From Candidatus Latescibacterota bacterium (lineage in GTDB: Bacteria; Latescibacterota; UBA2968; UBA8231), in the NCBI GenBank assembly GCA_965248265.1, contig CBDFJF010000002.1:3424001-3488000 (forward strand): a stretch of 64,000 nt of DNA, in the 5' to 3' direction. The notes under the pieces are model-generated. The model was given only the letters and a program-made list of their open reading frames with translations. It was not told where the DNA came from and searched no databases. Every line of letters begins with the position of its first letter. Within the stretch, counting starts at the first letter, position 1. Below, one piece after another: positions 5,513 to 63,940 of this stretch. A program made the position numbers and the translations under genes.

Positions 5513-6612
5513 CGCTGAGCTTTGAGGCAGTAGACCAAGCGCGGGCGTACACACAAACTCGCGGGGTGCCCCATATTGAAACAGCACGTATCGCCAATGC
5601 AATGTTTCATCAGCTGCGGCAAGACTCCTACGTCAAGCGGTATACCAGACAAAGCATCACAAACGCTGTTGGGGTCATAGCAGAGCAGCGCACAATGGCG
5701 TTAACATTAACCTCAACTCTGGCGTCAGATTCGCCAATGGCGGACACTATCGAGTCAAGGGTGTTAACGTCCTTTGACGATGGCGCTCTAAAATTTAGCA
5801 ATCGCCTTTCGGGGCAAAAAGAAGCCCTCAAAGTAGGTAATCGAGCCGTGAGTAAAAAAGAAGCCCTGTTTTGGGTGGCCAGCTCAATGCTGATGGCACA
5901 GGGGTATCTATGGCGTGATAATATTCGCATGATTGCCGCGCAGGGAACGGTCCCTGTGCACGTGTTTGGCAGGGACTCTTTACCCTACCCCATGATGTAT
6001 TGGTGCTTTGAAAATGCAGCGTGCCTTGACCCATTTGACAGAGGGGTTATTCCAAGACTGCCGCCCAGCGTAAGAGGGGTCGCCGAGCCCGGCGACGAGT
6101 TGTCTGGCGATGGGATTTTGGTGATAGACCAAGAGCAATGTGTCGTGATGGTGCAGATGGGTTCCTTGGAAAAACAAAATGGTGAGTGCTACTGCGTTTG
6201 TGACCACTTCACCCTGCCTTACGGACTGAGGTTCCCTGACGACTTCCCAGCCCAAACACGGGAACCGATACGAGTGCTCCTTGCCTTGCTATCGTTCCTT
6301 AATTCACCATTCATCGAAAAAAAACGAGAACGACCTAACCGTACAAGCAGGCGCGCAGCTCAACGCGAAAACGGCGAAGAAAACTCGCCCGATGTCTTTG
6401 TCGTTAAGCTACGACAGCCCGCCCACGCAACGGCAGCAAAAAAAGGCGGCGAGGTGGACGTAGACTGGAAGCATCAATGGCTGGTGCGAGGCCACCATCG
6501 CGCACAGTGGTATCCGTCAACGCAAACGCACAAGGTGATCTGGATTGCGCCCTACGTGAAGGGACCAGAAGATGCGCCCATGCTGGAGAAGGTGTACGAT
6601 GTCGTGCGGTAG
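5509..6612 (+). CDS. Hypothetical phage protein
   Basis: 367-aa ORF; C-terminal W.VRGHHR.QWYPS...HK.IWIAPYVKGP motif recalled from other phage proteins; visibly more AT-rich than neighbours. Confidence 0.7.
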   Translation: MTLSFEAVDQARAYTQTRGVPHIETARIANAMFHQLRQDSYVKRYTRQSITNAVGVIAEQRTMALTLTSTLASDSPMADTIESRVLTSFDDGALKFSNRLSGQKEALKVGNRAVSKKEALFWVASSMLMAQGYLWRDNIRMIAAQGTVPVHVFGRDSLPYPMMYWCFENAACLDPFDRGVIPRLPPSVRGVAEPGDELSGDGILVIDQEQCVVMVQMGSLEKQNGECYCVCDHFTLPYGLRFPDDFPAQTREPIRVLLALLSFLNSPFIEKKRERPNRTSRRAAQRENGEENSPDVFVVKLRQPAHATAAKKGGEVDVDWKHQWLVRGHHRAQWYPSTQTHKVIWIAPYVKGPEDAPMLEKVYDVVR

Positions 6613-6638
6613 TCCCGATAACGAGGGTTATCGTTAGT
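6611..6638. other. dif-like recombination site A (11-6-11)
   Basis: AGTCCCGATAA-CGAGGG-TTATCGTTAGT. Confidence 0.7.
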
Positions 6639-6807
6639 CCGTAACAATCCGCTCGTTGACGTACGCCTCTACATCCTGCCGCTTGATCCGCACACACTTG
6701 CCCAGCTTGATGTGCGGCAATTCCTTCCGCTGCAACAGCAAGCGGATGTAGCGCGGTGTTACCTGCCACATCTCCGCAACCTCATCCACCGTCATCAGCT
6801 GTTCCAT
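6634..6807 (-). CDS. Excisionase-like HTH_17 protein (cassette 1)
   Basis: LMTVDEVAEMWQVTPRYIRLLLQRKELPHIKLGKCVRI; stop codon lies inside site A. Confidence 0.85.
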   Translation of the reverse strand: MEQLMTVDEVAEMWQVTPRYIRLLLQRKELPHIKLGKCVRIKRQDVEAYVNERIVTD

Positions 6808-6812
6808 CGCAG

Positions 6813-6840
6813 ACCCATCATAAGAGGCCTTATCGTTAGT
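6813..6840. other. dif-like recombination site B
   Basis: ACCCATCATAA-GAGGCC-TTATCGTTAGT. Confidence 0.7.
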
Positions 6841-7040
6841 CACGCATCGGCGCAGCAGCTGGGCACCCAATCCTGCGTGTAGTCGCAATCGAGGCAGTAC
6901 AACCCACCCCGCCCCACGCGCAGTGGCCGATGGCTGTGCCCTCCGTCACCGCAAGTTAGCTCATGGAAATTTGGGTTTTCCTGCCACCGTCTAATGGCGT
7001 CGATTTCATACTGTGAAAATGGTGCCTTAACTTGCGGCAT
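6840..7040 (-). CDS. Small Zn-finger-like hypothetical protein (cassette 2)
   Basis: FHELTCG...H...LYCLDCDYTQDW; fits exactly between sites B and C. Confidence 0.7.
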   Translation of the reverse strand: MPQVKAPFSQYEIDAIRRWQENPNFHELTCGDGGHSHRPLRVGRGGLYCLDCDYTQDWVPSCCADA

Positions 7041-7043
7041 CTT

Positions 7044-7071
7044 ACTACTCATAATAGGTGTTATCGTTCGT
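7044..7071. other. dif-like recombination site C
   Basis: ACTACTCATAA-TAGGTG-TTATCGTTCGT (one mismatch in conserved arm). Confidence 0.65.
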
Positions 7072-7271
7072 CAGTCCCCGTACGACAGGCACAGCTTGCA
7101 CATGCACGGGCCGTCGTAGCCTTCGGGGTGCTCGTCCAACAGCTTCGTCATATCAAGAAGCGCGTCACGCTCTTGCTTCCAAGGCTGCAGTTCCGTCATC
7201 ACATCGAGCATGGCGCGAGCAAACAAATCAATCGCACCCTTGAGTTGGTCATATTCGCGCTGGCTGTTCAA
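7071..7271 (-). CDS. Hypothetical protein (cassette 3)
   Basis: EHPEGYDGPCMCKLCLSY motif; stop abuts site C. Confidence 0.65.
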   Translation of the reverse strand: MNSQREYDQLKGAIDLFARAMLDVMTELQPWKQERDALLDMTKLLDEHPEGYDGPCMCKLCLSYGD

Positions 7272-7483
7272 GGTTCCCTGCCCAGTTCCGTTAGTGCATT
7301 TTCAAACCGGCGAGCCATCGCCTCATTCCAGTTCCTTCCTGACCGCTCCAGATGAGACAGGTGCCCTTGGGTTATTTCCATGCAGTGGGCAACTTTGCTC
7401 AGCGATAGGCCAGCCGCTTCGCGCATTTTACGCGCTCGCTCGCCTGCCCCGGTGCCGTCAATCCTACCAAGTTCAAACCGCAT
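7268..7483 (-). CDS. XRE-family HTH protein (cassette 3)
   Basis: RKMREAAGLSLSKVAHCMEITQGHLSHLERSG; RBS lies within site D. Confidence 0.85.
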   Translation of the reverse strand: MRFELGRIDGTGAGERARKMREAAGLSLSKVAHCMEITQGHLSHLERSGRNWNEAMARRFENALTELGREP

Positions 7484-7487
7484 TTTG

Positions 7488-7515
7488 ACTCCCTTTAATC
7501 GGAATTATCGTTAGT
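7488..7515. other. dif-like recombination site D
   Basis: ACTCCCTTTAA-TCGGAA-TTATCGTTAGT. Confidence 0.7.
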
Positions 7516-7756
7516 CCGTCGGCACATCAGGGTCATTCTCGATTCTATCCTGCAGCCATTCGTTTGTCATCCCATAGTGGTCAATCGGCTCCACCAATAC
7601 TGGCAGCGGGCACCACGACGCCCGGAACTTTCGCACATCAAGCTCGGCGTAAATTGCCTGCCCATCTTTACCCGGCGCATAACATCGAGGCGGGTCGGGA
7701 TCGGCCAGCCACTGACCCGAGAAGAACGGGCAGTCCTTGCAGGCTTTAACTTTCAT
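7511..7756 (-). CDS. Hypothetical protein (C..CPF...C...WCPL)
   Basis: Cys motif; stop codon lies inside site D. Confidence 0.65.
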   Translation of the reverse strand: MKVKACKDCPFFSGQWLADPDPPRCYAPGKDGQAIYAELDVRKFRASWCPLPVLVEPIDHYGMTNEWLQDRIENDPDVPTD

Positions 7757-7958
7757 CAGGGGGATACCCGTCGTCTGCAGGGTGATAGTCAGGGTCAGCC
7801 AGCTGCTGAAATTCTTCCCACGTCATGCGCTCAACCTCAACATCATAGCGGCGCAGCCTGTCTTCCACGTCCTCCCATCGACCCTGCAGCTCGGGGCGCT
7901 GCTCACCATCGTTGCCAATGACGATGACCATCCCATTGGGAAACCTGAACGCTTTCAT
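7746..7958 (-). CDS. Hypothetical protein
   Basis: GGAGG RBS before MKAFRFPNG. Confidence 0.6.
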   Translation of the reverse strand: MKAFRFPNGMVIVIGNDGEQRPELQGRWEDVEDRLRRYDVEVERMTWEEFQQLADPDYHPADDGYPPDES

Positions 7959-38025: not shown

Positions 38026-39135
38026 TTACACGCTGGTTATTTGTTCGTCGAAGACCTTGAACTTCTTGGCAATGATGTCGTCTCGGGTGGTCATGTAGCG
38101 GCGGGTCATTTCAATCTTGGCGTGACCCAACAGCCGCTGCACCTCTTCCAGCTTCAGTCCCGACTCACACCAGCGGGTGGCCGCCGTGTGGCGCAGCATG
38201 TGAAAGTGCACGTGGCCGATGCCCGCCGCCTTGCCCGCCGTTTTGAGCGAGCGCTGGATGTTGATGTGGGGCAACGGCGGTAAGTCGCGCTGGTTGGAGA
38301 GGGCCAGCGCCGCCCGTTCGCGCAGCGCTTCGCGCACCCGGCTGGTCATGGGCACGTGGCGCTCGCGCCCGGTCTTGGTCCCCTTGCCATCCCAGGAGTC
38401 GTTGACCAGGATGCGGTTGCCCTCAAAATCTACCTTCTCCCAGGTCAAACTCATCAGCTCGCCGCGCCGCAAGCCGGTATCGACGGCCACCATGGCGATC
38501 AGGTGGGCATGGGGGCTGTCCTCGTTGCCTGCAAGCTGGGCCAACAGCTGGGCTGTTTGCTGTTCGGTCAGCGCCCGCGCCTCCACGTCCATGTAGTCGG
38601 GCTCGCGCTGCCGCTGCAGGCAGCGGGGGCCTGCCGGGTTGGTGCGGATGAGCTTTTTCTTATAACACCAGCCAAACAGGGCCGCCAAGCATGTTACCAT
38701 GGTATTGTAGGCCGAGGCGGACAGCTCCTGGTCTGGGTCTTTGAGGGGTTCCTGCTCATCCAACCAGTCCTGCAGGCGGGGGGTCGTCAACGAGCGCAGC
38801 TGCGTGGTGCCCAGCTGCGGCAGCAAGCGAGCGCTGAAGAAGTAGCGGTACGAACTCCAGGTGATGGGCCGCCACTGGTCGTACTCCTTCTCGAAGCGCA
38901 CCAGGGCTTGGGCCACGGTGATGGAGGATTCGCTGACAAACTCGCCCTTGTGCTCCAGCTCGTCGTTGATCTGGCGGGCCACGCGGGTGGCCCCGGTGAC
39001 ACTCATGCACTCGGTGTTGTGCTGGCGCTTGCGCCCGCCGTCGCGCCAGTGGGCCTGCCACACCCCCGTGCCCTTCGACTGCTTGAGGCGGACCCGGCCC
39101 ACACGGTGGGCTTCGGGTTGCTTATCCTGCCCCAT
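38026..39135 (-). CDS. int: Phage tyrosine integrase
   Basis: Arm-binding N-terminus, GLRRGEL, TKTG, HMLRH, LGH, TRRY catalytic residues; GGAGG RBS before ATG 39135; adjacent to tRNA. Confidence 0.95.
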   Translation of the reverse strand: MGQDKQPEAHRVGRVRLKQSKGTGVWQAHWRDGGRKRQHNTECMSVTGATRVARQINDELEHKGEFVSESSITVAQALVRFEKEYDQWRPITWSSYRYFFSARLLPQLGTTQLRSLTTPRLQDWLDEQEPLKDPDQELSASAYNTMVTCLAALFGWCYKKKLIRTNPAGPRCLQRQREPDYMDVEARALTEQQTAQLLAQLAGNEDSPHAHLIAMVAVDTGLRRGELMSLTWEKVDFEGNRILVNDSWDGKGTKTGRERHVPMTSRVREALRERAALALSNQRDLPPLPHINIQRSLKTAGKAAGIGHVHFHMLRHTAATRWCESGLKLEEVQRLLGHAKIEMTRRYMTTRDDIIAKKFKVFDEQITSV

Positions 39136-39363
39136 GATGTATGTTCCTCCTGTTGTGAAAAGCGACCCCGTTGGGGGCTCGCCGTTGACGCTAACACGAA
39201 TCAATATACGATGAAAAAAGCCCGAGCGCATCAAAAAAACTGCCGAATTGCTCCCGTTTCCACCGTGCGTCTCTCTCTGAGGGCCATTGCGCCAGGGCAT
39301 GAAGTGGCTATGGGGCAGGCAGGTGATAAGTGACTGTGTTTCATCTGGTTTACAGAGGTTGGA

Positions 39364-59352: not shown

Positions 59353-60390
59353 CTACGGGACCCGGATGTAGTCGGAGGCGTTGTCGGTAAGACGCTCACG
59401 GTTCTCGTAATACCGCATCGTCGTTTTCAAGTCCTTGTGTCGCAGGTGCGCCTGGACTTGCTGCGGCTTGGCTCCGCCCTCAATGGATAGCGTGCAACAG
59501 GTGTGCCTGAACATATGAGCAGTTACTTTATGGTCGAGTCCCGCGCGTAGTGCATACTTCCTGGCAATGTGGTTGACCGACTGATCCGAGAGGGGTTTTC
59601 CGTGTGACTGATTGCGGGACAAGCTGATAAAGGCTTTTCCTCCGTTGGCGTCGTATCCGTGAGCCAGCAGGACATCCCGGTATTGTTGTAGGAAATGGAC
59701 GACGACCGATTGGAGTTTGATATCCTGCGGAACACCGGATTTCGTCGTCGGTAGCGACAGTATGTAGAAGGCGCCGTCTTGAGAGAGGTCTGCCCAGGAG
59801 ATATTGGCGACTTCGGAGCGCCGCAGTCCGCCGTAAGTGAGCAGGTACAGGATGGCTTGATCCCGTGCCCGATGCAGTTCATCTTCCTCCTCTTCCACGG
59901 CCTTGAAGATCTGCTGGAGGCGCCTCTGGTCGATGGATTTGCCGGCCAGGGTTTCGTCCACCCGAAAGCCTCTGACAAGCGTTGAATCAGCAGGATTCTG
60001 TTCGATTACCTGGGCAGCGATCATCATCCGGAAAAACGCCTTCAGGCTCGAGAGTTTGCGATTTATGGTCGTGCGTTTGCGGCCGAGAGCCGCAAGGCCG
60101 TTGCGATAGTCTATGATGTCGGTGAAGGTGATGGCACGCACATCTGCCGGGGTTATCCGGTCAGTGTCGAAAAACTCGCAAATATCTGCGTAGTAAGCTT
60201 TTCTCGTTCTCTCAGTGAGCTGACCAGCGAGAAATTGGCCGAGGGGATCTTCCTCGATTTTCCTCAGCGCACGATTCTTCGGTACGCCGTCTTTGGCGTC
60301 CTTTACAACGGCAATTTCCACAGGATCGTGTCCTACTGTCGTAATCGCGGACGGAATGAATCCACTGGGAAGGCTGCACGGGGACGCCAA
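59353..60390 (-). CDS. Xer-like tyrosine recombinase (start uncertain)
   Basis: T..AY..D, TINRKLSSLK.FF, RD.AI..L...GLRRSEV, K, HMFRH, LRH, TMRY; no arm-binding domain. Confidence 0.93.
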   Translation of the reverse strand: MASPCSLPSGFIPSAITTVGHDPVEIAVVKDAKDGVPKNRALRKIEEDPLGQFLAGQLTERTRKAYYADICEFFDTDRITPADVRAITFTDIIDYRNGLAALGRKRTTINRKLSSLKAFFRMMIAAQVIEQNPADSTLVRGFRVDETLAGKSIDQRRLQQIFKAVEEEEDELHRARDQAILYLLTYGGLRRSEVANISWADLSQDGAFYILSLPTTKSGVPQDIKLQSVVVHFLQQYRDVLLAHGYDANGGKAFISLSRNQSHGKPLSDQSVNHIARKYALRAGLDHKVTAHMFRHTCCTLSIEGGAKPQQVQAHLRHKDLKTTMRYYENRERLTDNASDYIRVP

Positions 60391-60646
60391 ATATACAGAG
60401 GTCCTGAAGATTCGTCACTTAAAAACATATCTAAGGACATGAGGAGAATTGCAGAAAGCGGCCGATAAGTGTGGGAAAAGCGTCTATAAGTGAGAAAATC
60501 AGGCTGGCTTTCTTTGGCATCCTTTGGGCGATAACGATCGAGTTGACATTTTCGTTAGTATACTAGATTTAAATTTGCCCTATATAAAGCCACTGAACCT
60601 GTTGCTATTAAATGACATGTGACATTAGGTCTTATCTATACCCTTA

Positions 60647-60674
60647 ACTAACGATAACAAGAATTATCGTTAGT
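60647..60674. other. Perfect palindromic 11-6-11 recombinase site upstream of the tyrosine recombinase
   Basis: ACTAACGATAA-CAAGAA-TTATCGTTAGT. Confidence 0.8.
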
Positions 60675-60748
60675 ATAATATTAGTATGGTTTGAGCACTA
60701 ACGGGAGGATTAGAGTCTCTTTCTGACTGCAGGACTCGCCAGCTCGCT

Positions 60749-60776
60749 TGTGTACATAAATTGAGTTATGCGACAC
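60749..60776. other. dif-like site (XerC/XerD-type arms)
   Basis: Minus strand GTGTCGCATAA-CTCAAT-TTATGTACACA, compared with E. coli dif GGTGCGCATAA-TGTATA-TTATGTTAAAT. Confidence 0.6.
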
Positions 60777-60826
60777 AATGTTCACTCGGACGACCTAGAG
60801 TATGCTTCGGATGCGCTTTGAACTCT

Positions 60827-62617
60827 TCAAGTACGTCCAAACAGTTTGTCGAACTCGCGCAACGGGATCTTGACGAAAATGGGTCGTCCATGTGGACACA
60901 CAAACGGTTCTTTAGCCTGAAGCAGTCGCCCAATCAGCGTTTTCATCTGCTCTGCGGAGAGCCGCTCTCCGGCTCTGATCGAGGTGTGACAGGCCATCGA
61001 GGCCGCAACGGCCTCCCGCAGATGGGCCCGCACCTCGATTTCCTCCAACAATTCACCAATAATGCTGTGAAAGATCTCGCCGTCATGCCAATTCTTGAGT
61101 TCCGCCGGAACGGATTCGACGCGAAGCTCATTTGGCTTGGTGGTCTCGATCTCGAAGCCAATTTTCTCGAAATAATCCTTGGCCTCGGAGAATGCGTCCA
61201 TTTCGACGGGACTTAATTCCACGACAATCGGAAACAGGAGCCGTTGTGAGGAGGCTCCCTCGGCCTCCATTCGGTCCAGAACCTCCTCGAAACGCACCCG
61301 TTCGTGAGCAACATGCTGGTCGATGACGAGGAGGCCATCCGGAATCAGCGACAGGATGTACTTGCTGTGAACCTGCCATAACACTGCCTCAGAGCCGTGG
61401 GGGAAAAGGGCGCTGTCAGGATCCCCCTCCCCTTCTGCCGTGTTGGCGGTACGTGGAGTCAGCGGTATTCCCTTCAGTTGGGACGGCGCCAGCAAGGACA
61501 GGGACATCTGGGGTTCCTGTCCCGGCGAATCGGAGTTTTCTGGTTGATACGGAAGGAACGCAGGCCTCGGCTCTCCAGCTATCGATGCACCATCCGAAAT
61601 CGATGCAGGAAGGAACACGGTGCCCCTGTTGGGGGCGGTCTCTAGAGCACGCTGCACGGCCAGACACACAGCATCACGAACCTCGCGGATGGCGCTGAGC
61701 TTCACCTCGCGCTTGGTGGGGTGAACGTTGACGTCCACCTGACGCGGATCCAGGTCCAGCCACAGCACGAAGAGCGGATGTCGACCGTGAGGCAGCAAGC
61801 CGCCAAAGGCTGTGTAGATGGACTGATTGATCTCGCGCGAGTACACGGGACGTCGGCGCACCACGCAGAACTGCTTGGCGCGCGATTTCCTGCATTCTGC
61901 CGGTGTCGACATCCACAGCTCAGCGGTGATTCCATCCTGGTGTGTGGTGGCATGGAGCAAGTCTGTCCCCGGCAGGCCAAGTATGTCAGCAGCTCGGTCC
62001 TCCTTGCTTCCTGAACGCAGGTCCAGGGTTGTCCTGTCCTCGTGCTTGAGCTGGAAAGCAACCTCAGGGTACGCGGACGCGAGTTGAATGACGGTCTGCG
62101 TCACGTACCTCGCCTCAGTTTCCGCATGACGCAGAAACTTTCGGCGCGCCGGCGTGTTAAAGAAAAGACTGCGTACTCCAATGGAAGTCCCCACGTTTCG
62201 AGCAGTGGCGCCCAATTGGCGACGGATACCCCCTTCGATGACGAGGCGGGTGCCCTCCTGTTCCTCTCGCCAGCGCGTGTCGATGGTCATGCGCGATGCC
62301 GCTGCGATGCTGGCCAGGGCTTCGCCGCGAAAGCCAAGGGTGTCGATGTCGAACAGATCGGTGGGACCCCTCAATTTGCTGGTCGCATGACGTTCGACGC
62401 ACAGTTCCGTGTCCTCTCGTGACATCCCGGAGCCGTCGTCGGAGATGACGATACTCTGCCGACCTCCAGCACCGATTTCGACCGTTACTTTCCCGGCCCC
62501 TGCATCCAGAGAGTTTTCGACGAGTTCCTTCACCACGGAGGCCGGCCGGTCCACGACTTCGCCCGCGGCGATCTTGCTGATCACGTTCTCAGAGAGGATG
62601 TGGATTCTTGTGGTCAT
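60827..62617 (-). CDS. mutL: DNA mismatch repair endonuclease MutL
   Basis: [60 protein letters not shown]. Confidence 0.98.
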   Translation of the reverse strand: MTTRIHILSENVISKIAAGEVVDRPASVVKELVENSLDAGAGKVTVEIGAGGRQSIVISDDGSGMSREDTELCVERHATSKLRGPTDLFDIDTLGFRGEALASIAAASRMTIDTRWREEQEGTRLVIEGGIRRQLGATARNVGTSIGVRSLFFNTPARRKFLRHAETEARYVTQTVIQLASAYPEVAFQLKHEDRTTLDLRSGSKEDRAADILGLPGTDLLHATTHQDGITAELWMSTPAECRKSRAKQFCVVRRRPVYSREINQSIYTAFGGLLPHGRHPLFVLWLDLDPRQVDVNVHPTKREVKLSAIREVRDAVCLAVQRALETAPNRGTVFLPASISDGASIAGEPRPAFLPYQPENSDSPGQEPQMSLSLLAPSQLKGIPLTPRTANTAEGEGDPDSALFPHGSEAVLWQVHSKYILSLIPDGLLVIDQHVAHERVRFEEVLDRMEAEGASSQRLLFPIVVELSPVEMDAFSEAKDYFEKIGFEIETTKPNELRVESVPAELKNWHDGEIFHSIIGELLEEIEVRAHLREAVAASMACHTSIRAGERLSAEQMKTLIGRLLQAKEPFVCPHGRPIFVKIPLREFDKLFGRT

Positions 62618-63030
62618 TGGCGGTACATGACGCGGAAAGGAGTGTCTACAGCTCGGCGGAAATCGCTTCGGCTTTCCTGCGGTAGTCCTCTTGGGAGATC
62701 TCGCCGCTTTTCAGGGCCTTGTCGAGTTTCATAAGCCTGCCGCGAGGGCTGTCCAACTGTTTCCCGGCCCCTGCATCCAGAGAGTTTTCGACGAGTTCCT
62801 TCACCACGGAGGCCGGCCGGTCCACGACTTCGCCCGCGGCGATCTTGCTGATCACGTTCTCAGAGAGGATGTGGATTCTTGTGGTCATTGGCGGTACATG
62901 ACGCGGAAAGGAGTGTCTACAGCTCGGCGGAAATCGCTTCGGCTTTCCTGCGGTAGTCCTCTTGGGAGATCTCGCCGCTTTTCAGGGCCTTGTCGAGTTT
63001 CATAAGCCTGCCGCGAGGGCTGTCCAACTG
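62489..63030. repeat. Apparently exact 271-bp tandem duplication (62489-62759 and 62760-63030)
   Basis: Copies look identical and span the mutL 5' end and the upstream gene 3' end; TTT microhomology at the junction. Confidence 0.95.
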
Positions 63031-63519
63031 TTTGCTTCGTTTGGCCTGGGCGACGATGTAGTAGAGCCCAACGCCCAACAGGATCGCCATCAGTACCCAG
63101 CCCGTCTGTTGTCCTCGGGCCCTCTTTGCTGACGCTGCGTCATCCGCGGGTCGCACCTCGATTCCCCCATCTCGCCATTGATTCATTTGCTCCCGCGTCG
63201 GTTGTGAGCTGAGATCGACTGACACCAGCTGCCCCCTGCGTGGCCTAGCTCCGACGCCGGTTTGCTCCTCTACCGTGACTTCGGTTGCCAGAACACAGAT
63301 GAGCCAACGATCACCCACGGTTATGGCCTTTACCTGCTGATCGTCGAGGAGCCCCTGGAAGGTACCTTCAGATACTGAGATTTCATCTGGGCTCAACACG
63401 TTCATCAACACCACGATGATGGTCAAGGCTCCCGCCAGCAGCAAACTCAACTTCCGGTACGAAACGGAACCTTCGAGTCCTTCGTCATCGGGGGCAGTAT
63501 CAACCGAGTCTGGCTTCAC
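62917..63519 (-). CDS. Two-TM membrane protein with FtsH-extracellular-like region and C-terminal SHOCT-like motif
   Basis: Two hydrophobic helices; L.KL......GEISQEDY; GTG start with GAGGTG RBS inferred. Confidence 0.65.
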
Positions 63520-63940
63520 GTCGTGGCACCTCTGTGTTGTGACGAGCGGATTGATGGATCCAGTCTGCGACAAACAAGCCCTCGACGAAGGCTGTCTCCA
63601 CGGAGGTTTGCTCCACGGCCTGACTGGGTGTCTCAGTAGTCGCTTGGCCAAACTCTTCGTACGTCTCGCGCAAGCCGATGGCATCACTCGGGTGCAGGTC
63701 CACCTCGAAAGCAGCACTGCCTTTGCTCCCATACACAGCGATGCAAACGCGGGCACGGGACCCCAGTGCATTGATCTGAAGCGTCCCCTCTGTCGCGTCC
63801 TTGAAGCGCAATTGGACTACCGCTATGTCCTCCTGTGGCCGGTTGGCGACGAGACTTCTTGTGCGTGCGTAGATCGTGTCTATCGGCCCGAAGCAATGTT
63901 GAAGAAGCACCGCAAACGGGGCTGCGAATTCGGCTACCAC
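63500..63940 (-). CDS. Hypothetical protein (may extend beyond window)
   Basis: 146-aa ORF co-oriented with mutL. Confidence 0.45.
   Translation of the reverse strand: MVAEFAAPFAVLLQHCFGPIDTIYARTRSLVANRPQEDIAVVQLRFKDATEGTLQINALGSRARVCIAVYGSKGSAAFEVDLHPSDAIGLRETYEEFGQATTETPSQAVEQTSVETAFVEGLFVADWIHQSARHNTEVPRREARLG

Follow-up and report, generated by a model that had tools for sequence, protein, structure and literature searches.

Dif-like sites at the gene junctions of a Latescibacterota prophage as candidate targets of Xer-type, spacer-addressed cassette exchange

What do four co-oriented 28-bp sites do at the gene junctions of a tailed prophage of Candidatus Latescibacterota, and does a recombinase of the host act on them? 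The prophage lies in a 64-kb stretch of DNA, hereafter the window (C2:3424001–3488000 of the two-contig genome G000, 7.32 Mb in total; C1 and C2 are the contigs, and coordinates without a contig name are those of the window). The original prediction, made from the letters of the window, had described here an integron-like array of sites with a TAA-N6-TTAT core. The sequence check bore out the four co-oriented sites, each composed of two 11-bp arms and a 6-bp centre (11-6-11). Given on the minus (coding) strand, they read ACTAACGATAA-CCCTCG-TTATCGGGACT (site A, 6611–6638), ACTAACGATAA-GGCCTC-TTATGATGGGT (site B, 6813–6840), ACGAACGATAA-CACCTA-TTATGAGTAGT (site C, 7044–7071), and ACTAACGATAA-TTCCGA-TTAAAGGGAGT (site D, 7488–7515); A is the last in the array and lies between convergent genes. 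The predicted core is present at A, B, and C, while D has TTAA rather than TTAT, with GGGAG as its Shine–Dalgarno sequence. On balance, we lean towards reading the sites as places where co-resident mobile elements would exchange promoterless cassettes in an Xer-type, spacer-addressed manner.

With at most one mismatch allowed, the conserved 11-mer occurs in seven copies in the window against 0.15 expected, and none of 100 shuffles reaches seven, which rules out a chance origin of the sites. Besides A–D, a degenerate scan of the window retrieved just a palindrome at 60647–60674 and a half-site at 60549–60559. As predicted, the conserved (left) arm overlaps or abuts a minus-strand stop codon at each site: TAA falls at site position 3 at A and D, where the left arm contains the stop of a helix-turn-helix (HTH) gene of the HTH_17 type and of an 81-aa gene, respectively, and TGA at position −1 abuts the left arm at B and C. 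The predicted distance of 3–5 bp from the variable (right) arm to the next start codon stands for D (4 nt) and B (5 nt); at C the ATG lies within the right arm, or 3 nt past it if the second ATG is used. No gene starts after A, where a convergent 367-aa gene faces the end of the array. The arm that had been called variable is also a ribosome-binding site: in the genome-wide class of such sites, right arms end with GGAGT or GGGAGT, a Shine–Dalgarno sequence complementary to CCTCC of the 16S 3' end.

The 11-mer recurs, as had been predicted, in a perfect palindrome near a tyrosine recombinase gene (60647–60674; ACTAACGATAA-CAAGAA-TTATCGTTAGT, arms matching at 11/11 positions). It lies 257 bp upstream of the start of the longest open reading frame (ORF) of that gene (59353–60390, minus strand; 345 aa; Pfam PF00589); since alignments of the orthologues start near residue 40, the true start may be further in. 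The cumulative GC skew has its maximum at C2:3,486,365, 1.7 kb from the palindrome, and the skew minimum on C1 yields balanced replichores of 3.70 and 3.62 Mb. At the orthologous locus, the skew, read from sampled 20-kb windows, turns from positive to negative in all four other complete genomes sampled (G008, G002, G072, G063), so that the switch is seen in 5/5 genomes with G000 included. Orthologues of the recombinase are found in 18 of the 24 other genomes of the family (60–73% identity, single copy) and in none of 16 genomes from other families of the class. A palindrome of the form ACTAnCGATAA-N6-TTATCGnTAGT precedes the orthologue in 48/57 close loci, with arm symmetry of 8–11/11, at about 100–900 bp and mostly ~200 bp upstream of the gene; under stricter criteria it is retained at 12/19 orthologue loci. 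The arms co-vary symmetrically between genera (ACTACCG/CGGTAGT, ACTCCCG/CGGGAGT, ACCAACG/CGTTGGT), as they should if two copies of a single protein bind the site. Its terminus position, and the fact that it is paired with the recombinase gene across genomes, make this palindrome very probably the chromosomal dif of G000, in line with its predicted role as a host recombinase site; a dif adjoining the recombinase gene counts as a hallmark of single-recombinase Xer systems (PMC5357621).

Judged by its profile scores, the recombinase is Xer-like and a member of an uncharacterised clade: the NCBIfam bit scores are all below the cut-offs (in parentheses) for XerC, 119.5 (335), XerD, 114.6 (329.6), XerA, 100.7 (220), and XerS, 69.5 (267). 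The closest solved relatives are all distant (XerD, E 9e-15; XerA, 9e-12; XerH, 6e-9). Residues R150/R151, K177, H252, R255, H278, and Y287/Y288 are invariant in 10 orthologues and are candidates for the catalytic R-K-H-R-H-Y set of tyrosine recombinases. The genome also encodes XerD-like (C2:769733–770650; 267.6 bits, cut-off 329.6), XerC-like (C2:715863–716894; 193.8 bits), and integron-integrase-like (C1:1754213–1755118) paralogues, all under the equivalog cut-offs.

Some observations on dif-like sequences stand apart from the array. The AT-rich gap between the recombinase gene and mutL (60391–60826, 436 bp) holds the palindrome, followed by TATAAT, and, 100 bp from it, the isolated half-site TTTTCGTTAGT (60549–60559, plus strand), followed by TATACT, i.e., by a TATA-like hexamer as after the right arm of the palindrome. 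In genus g14, about 12 genomes carry a second conserved near-palindromic dif-like site, ACTCCCGATAA-TAYCCC-TTATMGGGAGT (L252:1501–1528 in G072), between two ordinary genes with conserved flanks, away from the GC-skew switch and with no adjoining recombinase; G063 has an additional identical copy ~800 kb off. Among the matches listed for viral contigs, perfect ACTAACGATAA…TTATCGTTAGT palindromes occur in two AT-rich contigs (27–31% GC), and a near-perfect palindrome with the same arms occurs at the end of a contig with 57% GC (loci L126:3987–4014, L133:7381–7408, and L120:9277–9304); use of the arm sequence may thus extend far beyond this family.

In the window array, the left arm is that of dif at three sites and departs from it by one mismatch at the fourth; right arms of the form TTAnnGGGAGT match the dif arm TTATCGGGAGT of other genera at ~9/11 positions. 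The proposed Xer-type 11-6-11 anatomy of the phage sites is thus upheld by dif likeness in both arms. The centres are pyrimidine-rich, as in dif. A position-weight scan built from genome coordinates located about 20 sites of the phage type in several mobile elements of the genome, with arrays at five places. In the order of transcription, the centres are TTCCGA, CACCTA, GGCCTC, and CCCTCG in the window; CGCCGG, TGCCAT, GAAACC, TTCCGA, …, and TCCTCG in the C1:1594 kb array; CGCCGG, TGCCAT, TTCCGA, TATCTC, and CCCTCG in the C1:675 kb array; and TTCCGA, TCCCTC, and CCCTCG in the C1:786 kb array; the C1:27 kb array partly duplicates that at C1:1594 kb. Without exception, the array sites point in one direction on the coding strand and lie either in the chromosome or in a prophage. 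A stop codon lies in or beside the left arm at every array site, and at 13/21 sites the open frame that ends there has 43 codons or more; site positions 20–46 include a start codon in 20/21 sites. The pattern CGATAA-N6-TTA-N3-GGAGT has 11 matches in G000 and none in the reversed control; in the other genomes of the family it has 1–3 matches in 15/75, mostly dif itself, with control matches totalling three. The 16 exact copies of the 11-mer ACTAACGATAA in the genome belong to dif (2), phage-type arrays (6), and IS91-type ends (8, see below), and none to ordinary host promoters.

The centre TTCCGA of site D occurs also at C1:676792, 786782, and 1595961 (=30031), and the centre CCCTCG of site A at C1:366409, 677932, and 787566. 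Recurring centres have unrelated flanks: TTCCGA is found in four independent contexts, CCCTCG in four, and TGCCAT in two, while the centres of B and C have a single occurrence each in the genome. The order CGCCGG, TGCCAT, TTCCGA, CCCTCG is preserved among the arrays having these types, and genes at equivalent array positions show no blastp similarity to each other. The original prediction had noted that the spacers all differ, so that exchange would need to tolerate mismatches, or the sites would be scars of sequential captures. The spacers are not arbitrary, however: given that TTCCGA and CCCTCG recur in other elements in the same order, exchange would take place between elements, at like-spaced sites, and not among A–D, which removes the worry.

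Module boundaries give the position of the junctions within a site. A 404-nt module at C1:675820–676223 recurs at C1:28227–28628 and C1:1594155–1594558 with 98.5–99% identity, the flanks having no homology. At its left end, three upstream contexts with the left arms ACTCCCGATAA, ATTCCCGATAA, and ACTCACTACAA lead into one and the same CGCCGG-TTAAAATGAAT; at its right end, the copies have ACCAACGATAA-TGCCAT in common, diverge from site position 20, and continue with different genes. Both breakpoints thus fall within about positions 10–19, i.e., the 6-bp centre and its borders, and each junction keeps one centre in all contexts (CGCCGG and TGCCAT, respectively). Tyrosine recombinases exchange strands at the centre of the site and require matching centres, and breakpoints at a 6-bp centre with identical centres fit this mode of strand exchange. 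A 4,062-nt block, 100% identical between C1:28234–32295 and C1:1594164–1598225 and including a DnaC/IstB-like ATPase gene, has its left end at the module junction; transfer in the very recent past may account for it, or possibly a duplication made by the assembly. Further homology blocks start or stop at sites, at a resolution that leaves the position within the site unresolvable. Judged from these alignments, sites of this class mark module boundaries in the sister arrays of this genome. The predicted movement of cassettes has its counterpart in a sister-array module seen in three unrelated contexts; the cassettes of the window have no copies elsewhere.

The mechanism that we favour would run as follows. 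Sites A–D would be dif-like targets of the host Xer-type recombinase at the junctions of small promoterless genes in the early operon of the prophage. The left arm, a copy of the host dif arm, would provide the stop of the preceding gene; strands would be exchanged in the 6-bp centre; and the right arm, dif-like as well, would double as the ribosome-binding site of the downstream gene. Since matching centres are needed, a site would exchange only with a site of the same centre. With centres that differ along the array and recur in order elsewhere, a gene or block could be swapped in register and the operon left unscrambled, via a cointegrate or two crossovers between co-resident elements. That the catalyst is the host Xer-like enzyme, that the window sites are active, and that exchange is site-specific and does not proceed via short homology, we infer. 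More tentatively, and short of calling it probable, we propose an address-coded system of cassette exchange in the temperate phages and integrative elements of Latescibacterota, where each junction would combine a stop codon, a recombination site, and a ribosome-binding site, and where the host dif recombinase, perhaps aided by a phage HTH protein, would replace a gene or block by a non-homologous allele.

The layout of the sites would also suit intercistronic expression signals, perhaps bound by a host factor, that serve general or phage recombination as passive linker homologies with no site-specific enzyme; we consider this improbable, while giving it more weight than the other alternatives. 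In lambdoid phages, mosaic boundaries lie at short conserved junction sequences and gene order is kept. The location of all sites on the coding strand, the stop codons in or beside the left arms, the start codons that follow, the complementarity of GGAGT to the 16S 3' end, and the Gam-like gene encoded by the window prophage all agree with such linkers. Linkers of this kind would leave unexplained the identity of the left arm with the host dif arm, the 11-6-11 geometry, and the position-specific centres common to unrelated elements; moreover, the homology at the junctions is just about 17–28 bp, and the breakpoints fall at the centre and not at the best-conserved CGATAA. Expression signals were looked for at the sites themselves. 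No sigma-70-type promoter and no intrinsic terminator coincides with any of A–D, for which reason a promoter or terminator role was rejected. Nor is there a consistent RNA structure: compared with shuffles, folding of A–D gives z = −2.2 to +0.4, with no significant fold for C and D, and a hairpin as the function of the sites was rejected, as only the perfect palindrome (z −5.1) folds better than shuffles. Pairing of the left arm with 16S rRNA was likewise rejected, as 584/1000 shuffled arms match equally well. A different regulatory role, less likely still, would be that of operators or roadblocks for an element-encoded HTH_17 or XRE repressor, with the dif likeness due to mimicry or coincidence. 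Some mycobacteriophages have asymmetric "stoperators", co-oriented with transcription in short intergenic gaps, and the sites studied here resemble them in both respects; the array encodes both an XRE-type HTH and an HTH_17 protein, and the latter is 40% identical to the HTH_17 protein beside the integrase of a prophage on C1. Against operators stands the conservation of the arm, as a host site beside the recombinase, in 48/57 genomes without this phage; in addition, no regulator was detected in the C1:675 kb and C1:786 kb arrays, though these have site types in common with the window, and operators do not predict module boundaries at the site centre.

A further candidate enzyme is suggested by a look-alike of the sites. 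The loose pattern CGATAA-N6-TTA has 75 matches genome-wide, 60 of them starting with A[C/G]N, and many copies are preceded by TTGAC at a distance of two bases and contain TATMMY within the right arm, with a 19-bp spacer. A general promoter motif was considered and rejected, the promoter-like copies being oriIS-side ends of elements of the IS91 family of insertion sequences (IS). The copies lie at a fixed 210–340 nt downstream of IS91-family transposase genes, of which there are at least six full-length copies and many fragments; in 3/6 full-length copies the look-alike is detected 210–284 nt downstream of tnpA, and solo copies have a sharp common outer boundary and a variable upstream reach. 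IS91 ends are described as carrying imperfect subterminal palindromes, with cleavage at the element end, outside the palindrome, and one-ended transposition as frequent and mobilising adjacent DNA (PMC13181058). By transposase spacing, outer boundary, and these known features, the look-alike 28-mer is the oriIS-side end of an IS91-family element, a class apart from the phage sites. The phage sites, too, might be substrates of IS91-family rolling-circle (HUH) transposases, with modules moving by one-ended transposition, in line with the similarity of the 28-mers and the abundance of transposases; we find this very improbable. IS91-type cleavage falls at the element end, and the IS-class repeats indeed stop ~6 nt past the 28-mer, whereas boundaries of the phage class lie in the centre; phage-class sites, moreover, have no nearby tnpA, none of the conserved flank of 40–600 nt, and no TTGAC/TATMMY.

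The IS91-type 28-mers have features of their own, although their left arm equals the dif arm. They are found at C2:1134276–1156261, 1839011, 2705452–2707378, 2775533–2777425, 2800225, and other places. Seven identical copies lie in one 22-kb stretch, mostly upstream of differing operons and in one orientation, and such ends may act as mobile outward promoters. At C2:2705452 (minus strand), an IS110-family transposase gene follows directly after the final base of the 28-mer, whereas in the sister copy (C2:2707351) the usual "aagcgt" comes next. This points to the IS91-type repeat as the target of an IS.

Returning to Xer-type exchange, a number of points weigh against it. The right arms of B and C agree with dif at just 7–8/11 positions, and the look-alike at IS91 ends shows that sequences other than Xer targets can have the arm motif. 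The junctions that matter most all stem from a single module of one genome and represent about three independent events, and the right end of the 4,062-nt block is away from any site. Conservation of the centre order is statistically weak, roughly 1 in 8 after discounting the shared module. Several "cassettes" of the low-GC arrays at C1:675 kb and C1:786 kb have no convincing ORFs. For the window cassettes, a protein-level tblastn search (E<=1e-6) found no homologue elsewhere in the genome, so their mobility would follow from the sister arrays by analogy. The acting enzyme could be another one, as XerD-like and XerC-like paralogues are co-resident. Same-centre sites are direct repeats on one chromosome, 0.1–1.6 Mb apart, where free recombination would delete essential DNA; activity would hence have to be rare or controlled. 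Finally, an HTH_17 protein is encoded in both prophages and could bind the sites instead. Alternatively, a protein of this type might act like XafT of TLCphi, which can activate Xer and stabilise synapses between imperfect sites (PMC9226527).

Searches beyond the genome concerned relatives and rearrangements. The cassette DNA (6560–7800) was found in 1/76 genomes of the family, namely G000 itself, and the same holds for the 367-aa protein, which has no relative in the viral contigs searched. A 14-base site pattern matches at least 117 stretches of viral contigs, mostly as single matches as expected by chance; among the matches listed, at least 10 loci have two or more relaxed sites, three of them being single palindromes and one a tandem repeat. 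Two full site types have no match each in viral contigs and one match in metagenome contigs, apparently within a coding region. In assembled contigs from four runs of one sample, one contig per run matches the stretch exactly and may be its source. Two apparent rearrangement joints in those contigs were rejected as other loci of the same genome.

The array region encodes an XRE-type HTH protein, an excisionase-type HTH_17 protein, and three small proteins with no family match. All its genes are on the minus strand. The 81-aa gene (7511–7756) precedes D and has its stop codon inside the left arm of D. The unit between D and C consists of a 71-aa XRE-type HTH gene (7268–7483; Pfam HTH_31/HTH_3; PHROG transcriptional repressor, E 1.7e-5) and a 66-aa gene (7071–7271); the unit between C and B is a 70-aa Cys/His-rich gene (6840–7052), neither of the two latter having a family match in Pfam or PHROG. 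The unit between B and A is the excisionase-type HTH_17 gene (6634–6813; Pfam PF12728, E 6e-14; PHROG excisionase/regulator). The convergent 367-aa phage gene (5509–6612, plus strand; phrog_15934) marks the array end. With 0.550, the G+C content of the array (6611–7515) is slightly below that of the remaining prophage (0.586–0.590).

The element holding the array is a tailed prophage by its large terminase (E 3e-31) and major head protein (E 1e-38), with a weak portal match and a tail-fibre chaperone domain in addition. Gene and protein searches of the window found its own integrase at 38026–39300 (minus strand), so that integration of the prophage is independent of Xer. From dif it is separated by 53 kb that include asnS and leuS. 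Among the ORFs of the window, no recombinase gene adjoins the array. A distant relative of the prophage at C1:1.561–1.601 Mb, with structural genes at 30–50% amino-acid identity, bears sites of the same kind in its early operon. Away from the prophage, a small ORF at 62646–62888 starts with a copy of the N-terminal ~43 residues of MutL, to which the last ~37 residues of a neighbouring 284-aa protein are joined, the two genes being 60827–62617 and 62917–63771; this indicates a putative short local duplication or rearrangement just upstream of mutL.

How the sites relate to known systems can be seen from five comparisons. As in the XerC–XerD plasmid dif modules of Acinetobacter, copies of the host dif, 28 bp long and of 11-6-11 structure, flank the modules, and one module (here the 404-nt module of the C1 arrays) is found in different contexts; crossover there takes place within the site and requires 6-bp spacers that are identical or nearly so (PMC13141974). 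Unlike those modules, carried by Rep_3/OrfX plasmids with alternating C/D and D/C sites, the sites studied here are in tailed prophages and other chromosomal elements and all direct along the operon; the host system, with its palindromic dif, appears to be of the single-recombinase type, stop codon and ribosome-binding site are part of the arms, the spacers follow one another in a set order, and exchange is deduced from sequence comparison. Among single-recombinase systems, XerS/difSL, XerH/difH, and archaeal XerA/dif likewise have the gene beside a near-palindromic dif at the terminus and a protein larger than XerC/D, about 305–345 aa (PMC5357621). Here, in contrast, the protein is distant and reaches none of the NCBIfam Xer cut-offs, the centre has 6 bp (11 bp in difSL), and XerC-like and XerD-like paralogues co-exist with it. 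Like integrative mobile elements exploiting Xer (IMEX; CTXphi, TLCphi, VGJphi), in which dif-like sites with imperfect arms are tolerated by the host Xer (PMC9226527), the elements studied here would exploit the host enzyme; whereas IMEX integrate whole at dif with no integrase of their own, the prophage encodes an integrase, is 53 kb away from dif, and contains four internal sites, none with the dif centre.

With integron cassettes the array shares promoterless ORFs in one orientation, bounded by sites of an Xer-related tyrosine recombinase. The integron-like insertion platform of the original prediction did not hold: beside the array, an attI-like primary site and a dedicated integrase (IntI) are both absent, and the sites, 28 bp long and of the double-strand 11-6-11 type, differ from attC hairpins, which are about 57–141 nt. 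Since each site along the array has another centre, excision of a cassette through recombination of neighbouring sites is not expected, unlike in integrons. Like the linker sequences of lambdoid phages, the sites are short, conserved, and placed at gene boundaries whose order is kept during module exchange; lambdoid linkers are thought to act through homologous recombination, whereas here the junction is a copy of the host dif with the anatomy of a recombinase site.

The papers listed by our literature searches include no earlier description of Xer-bounded modules for tailed phages or for this phylum, and no earlier account of a dif/Xer module of Candidatus Latescibacterota; those listed by one of the searches on the latter do not mention the phylum. 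To our knowledge, Xer-bounded gene modules have been described essentially in Acinetobacter plasmids, where they move resistance genes, and we know of no phage use of Xer other than whole-genome integration at dif. Known Xer-bounded modules differ from those described here in host phylum, element type, and site orientation, and in lacking the fusion to translation signals. Apart from the phage question, the analysis defines a probable dif/Xer module of Candidatus Latescibacterota. If Xer-type exchange is true, the host dif enzyme would also drive gene-by-gene mosaicism within tailed prophages of an uncultured phylum, with a spacer code that holds exchange in register and sites fused to translation signals, and the long-standing idea that phages exchange modules at dedicated junction sequences would become directly testable. 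Should the address-coded system prove true as well, it would provide an enzymatic basis for the modular ("linker") theory of phage evolution, and a natural design of plug-and-play operons.

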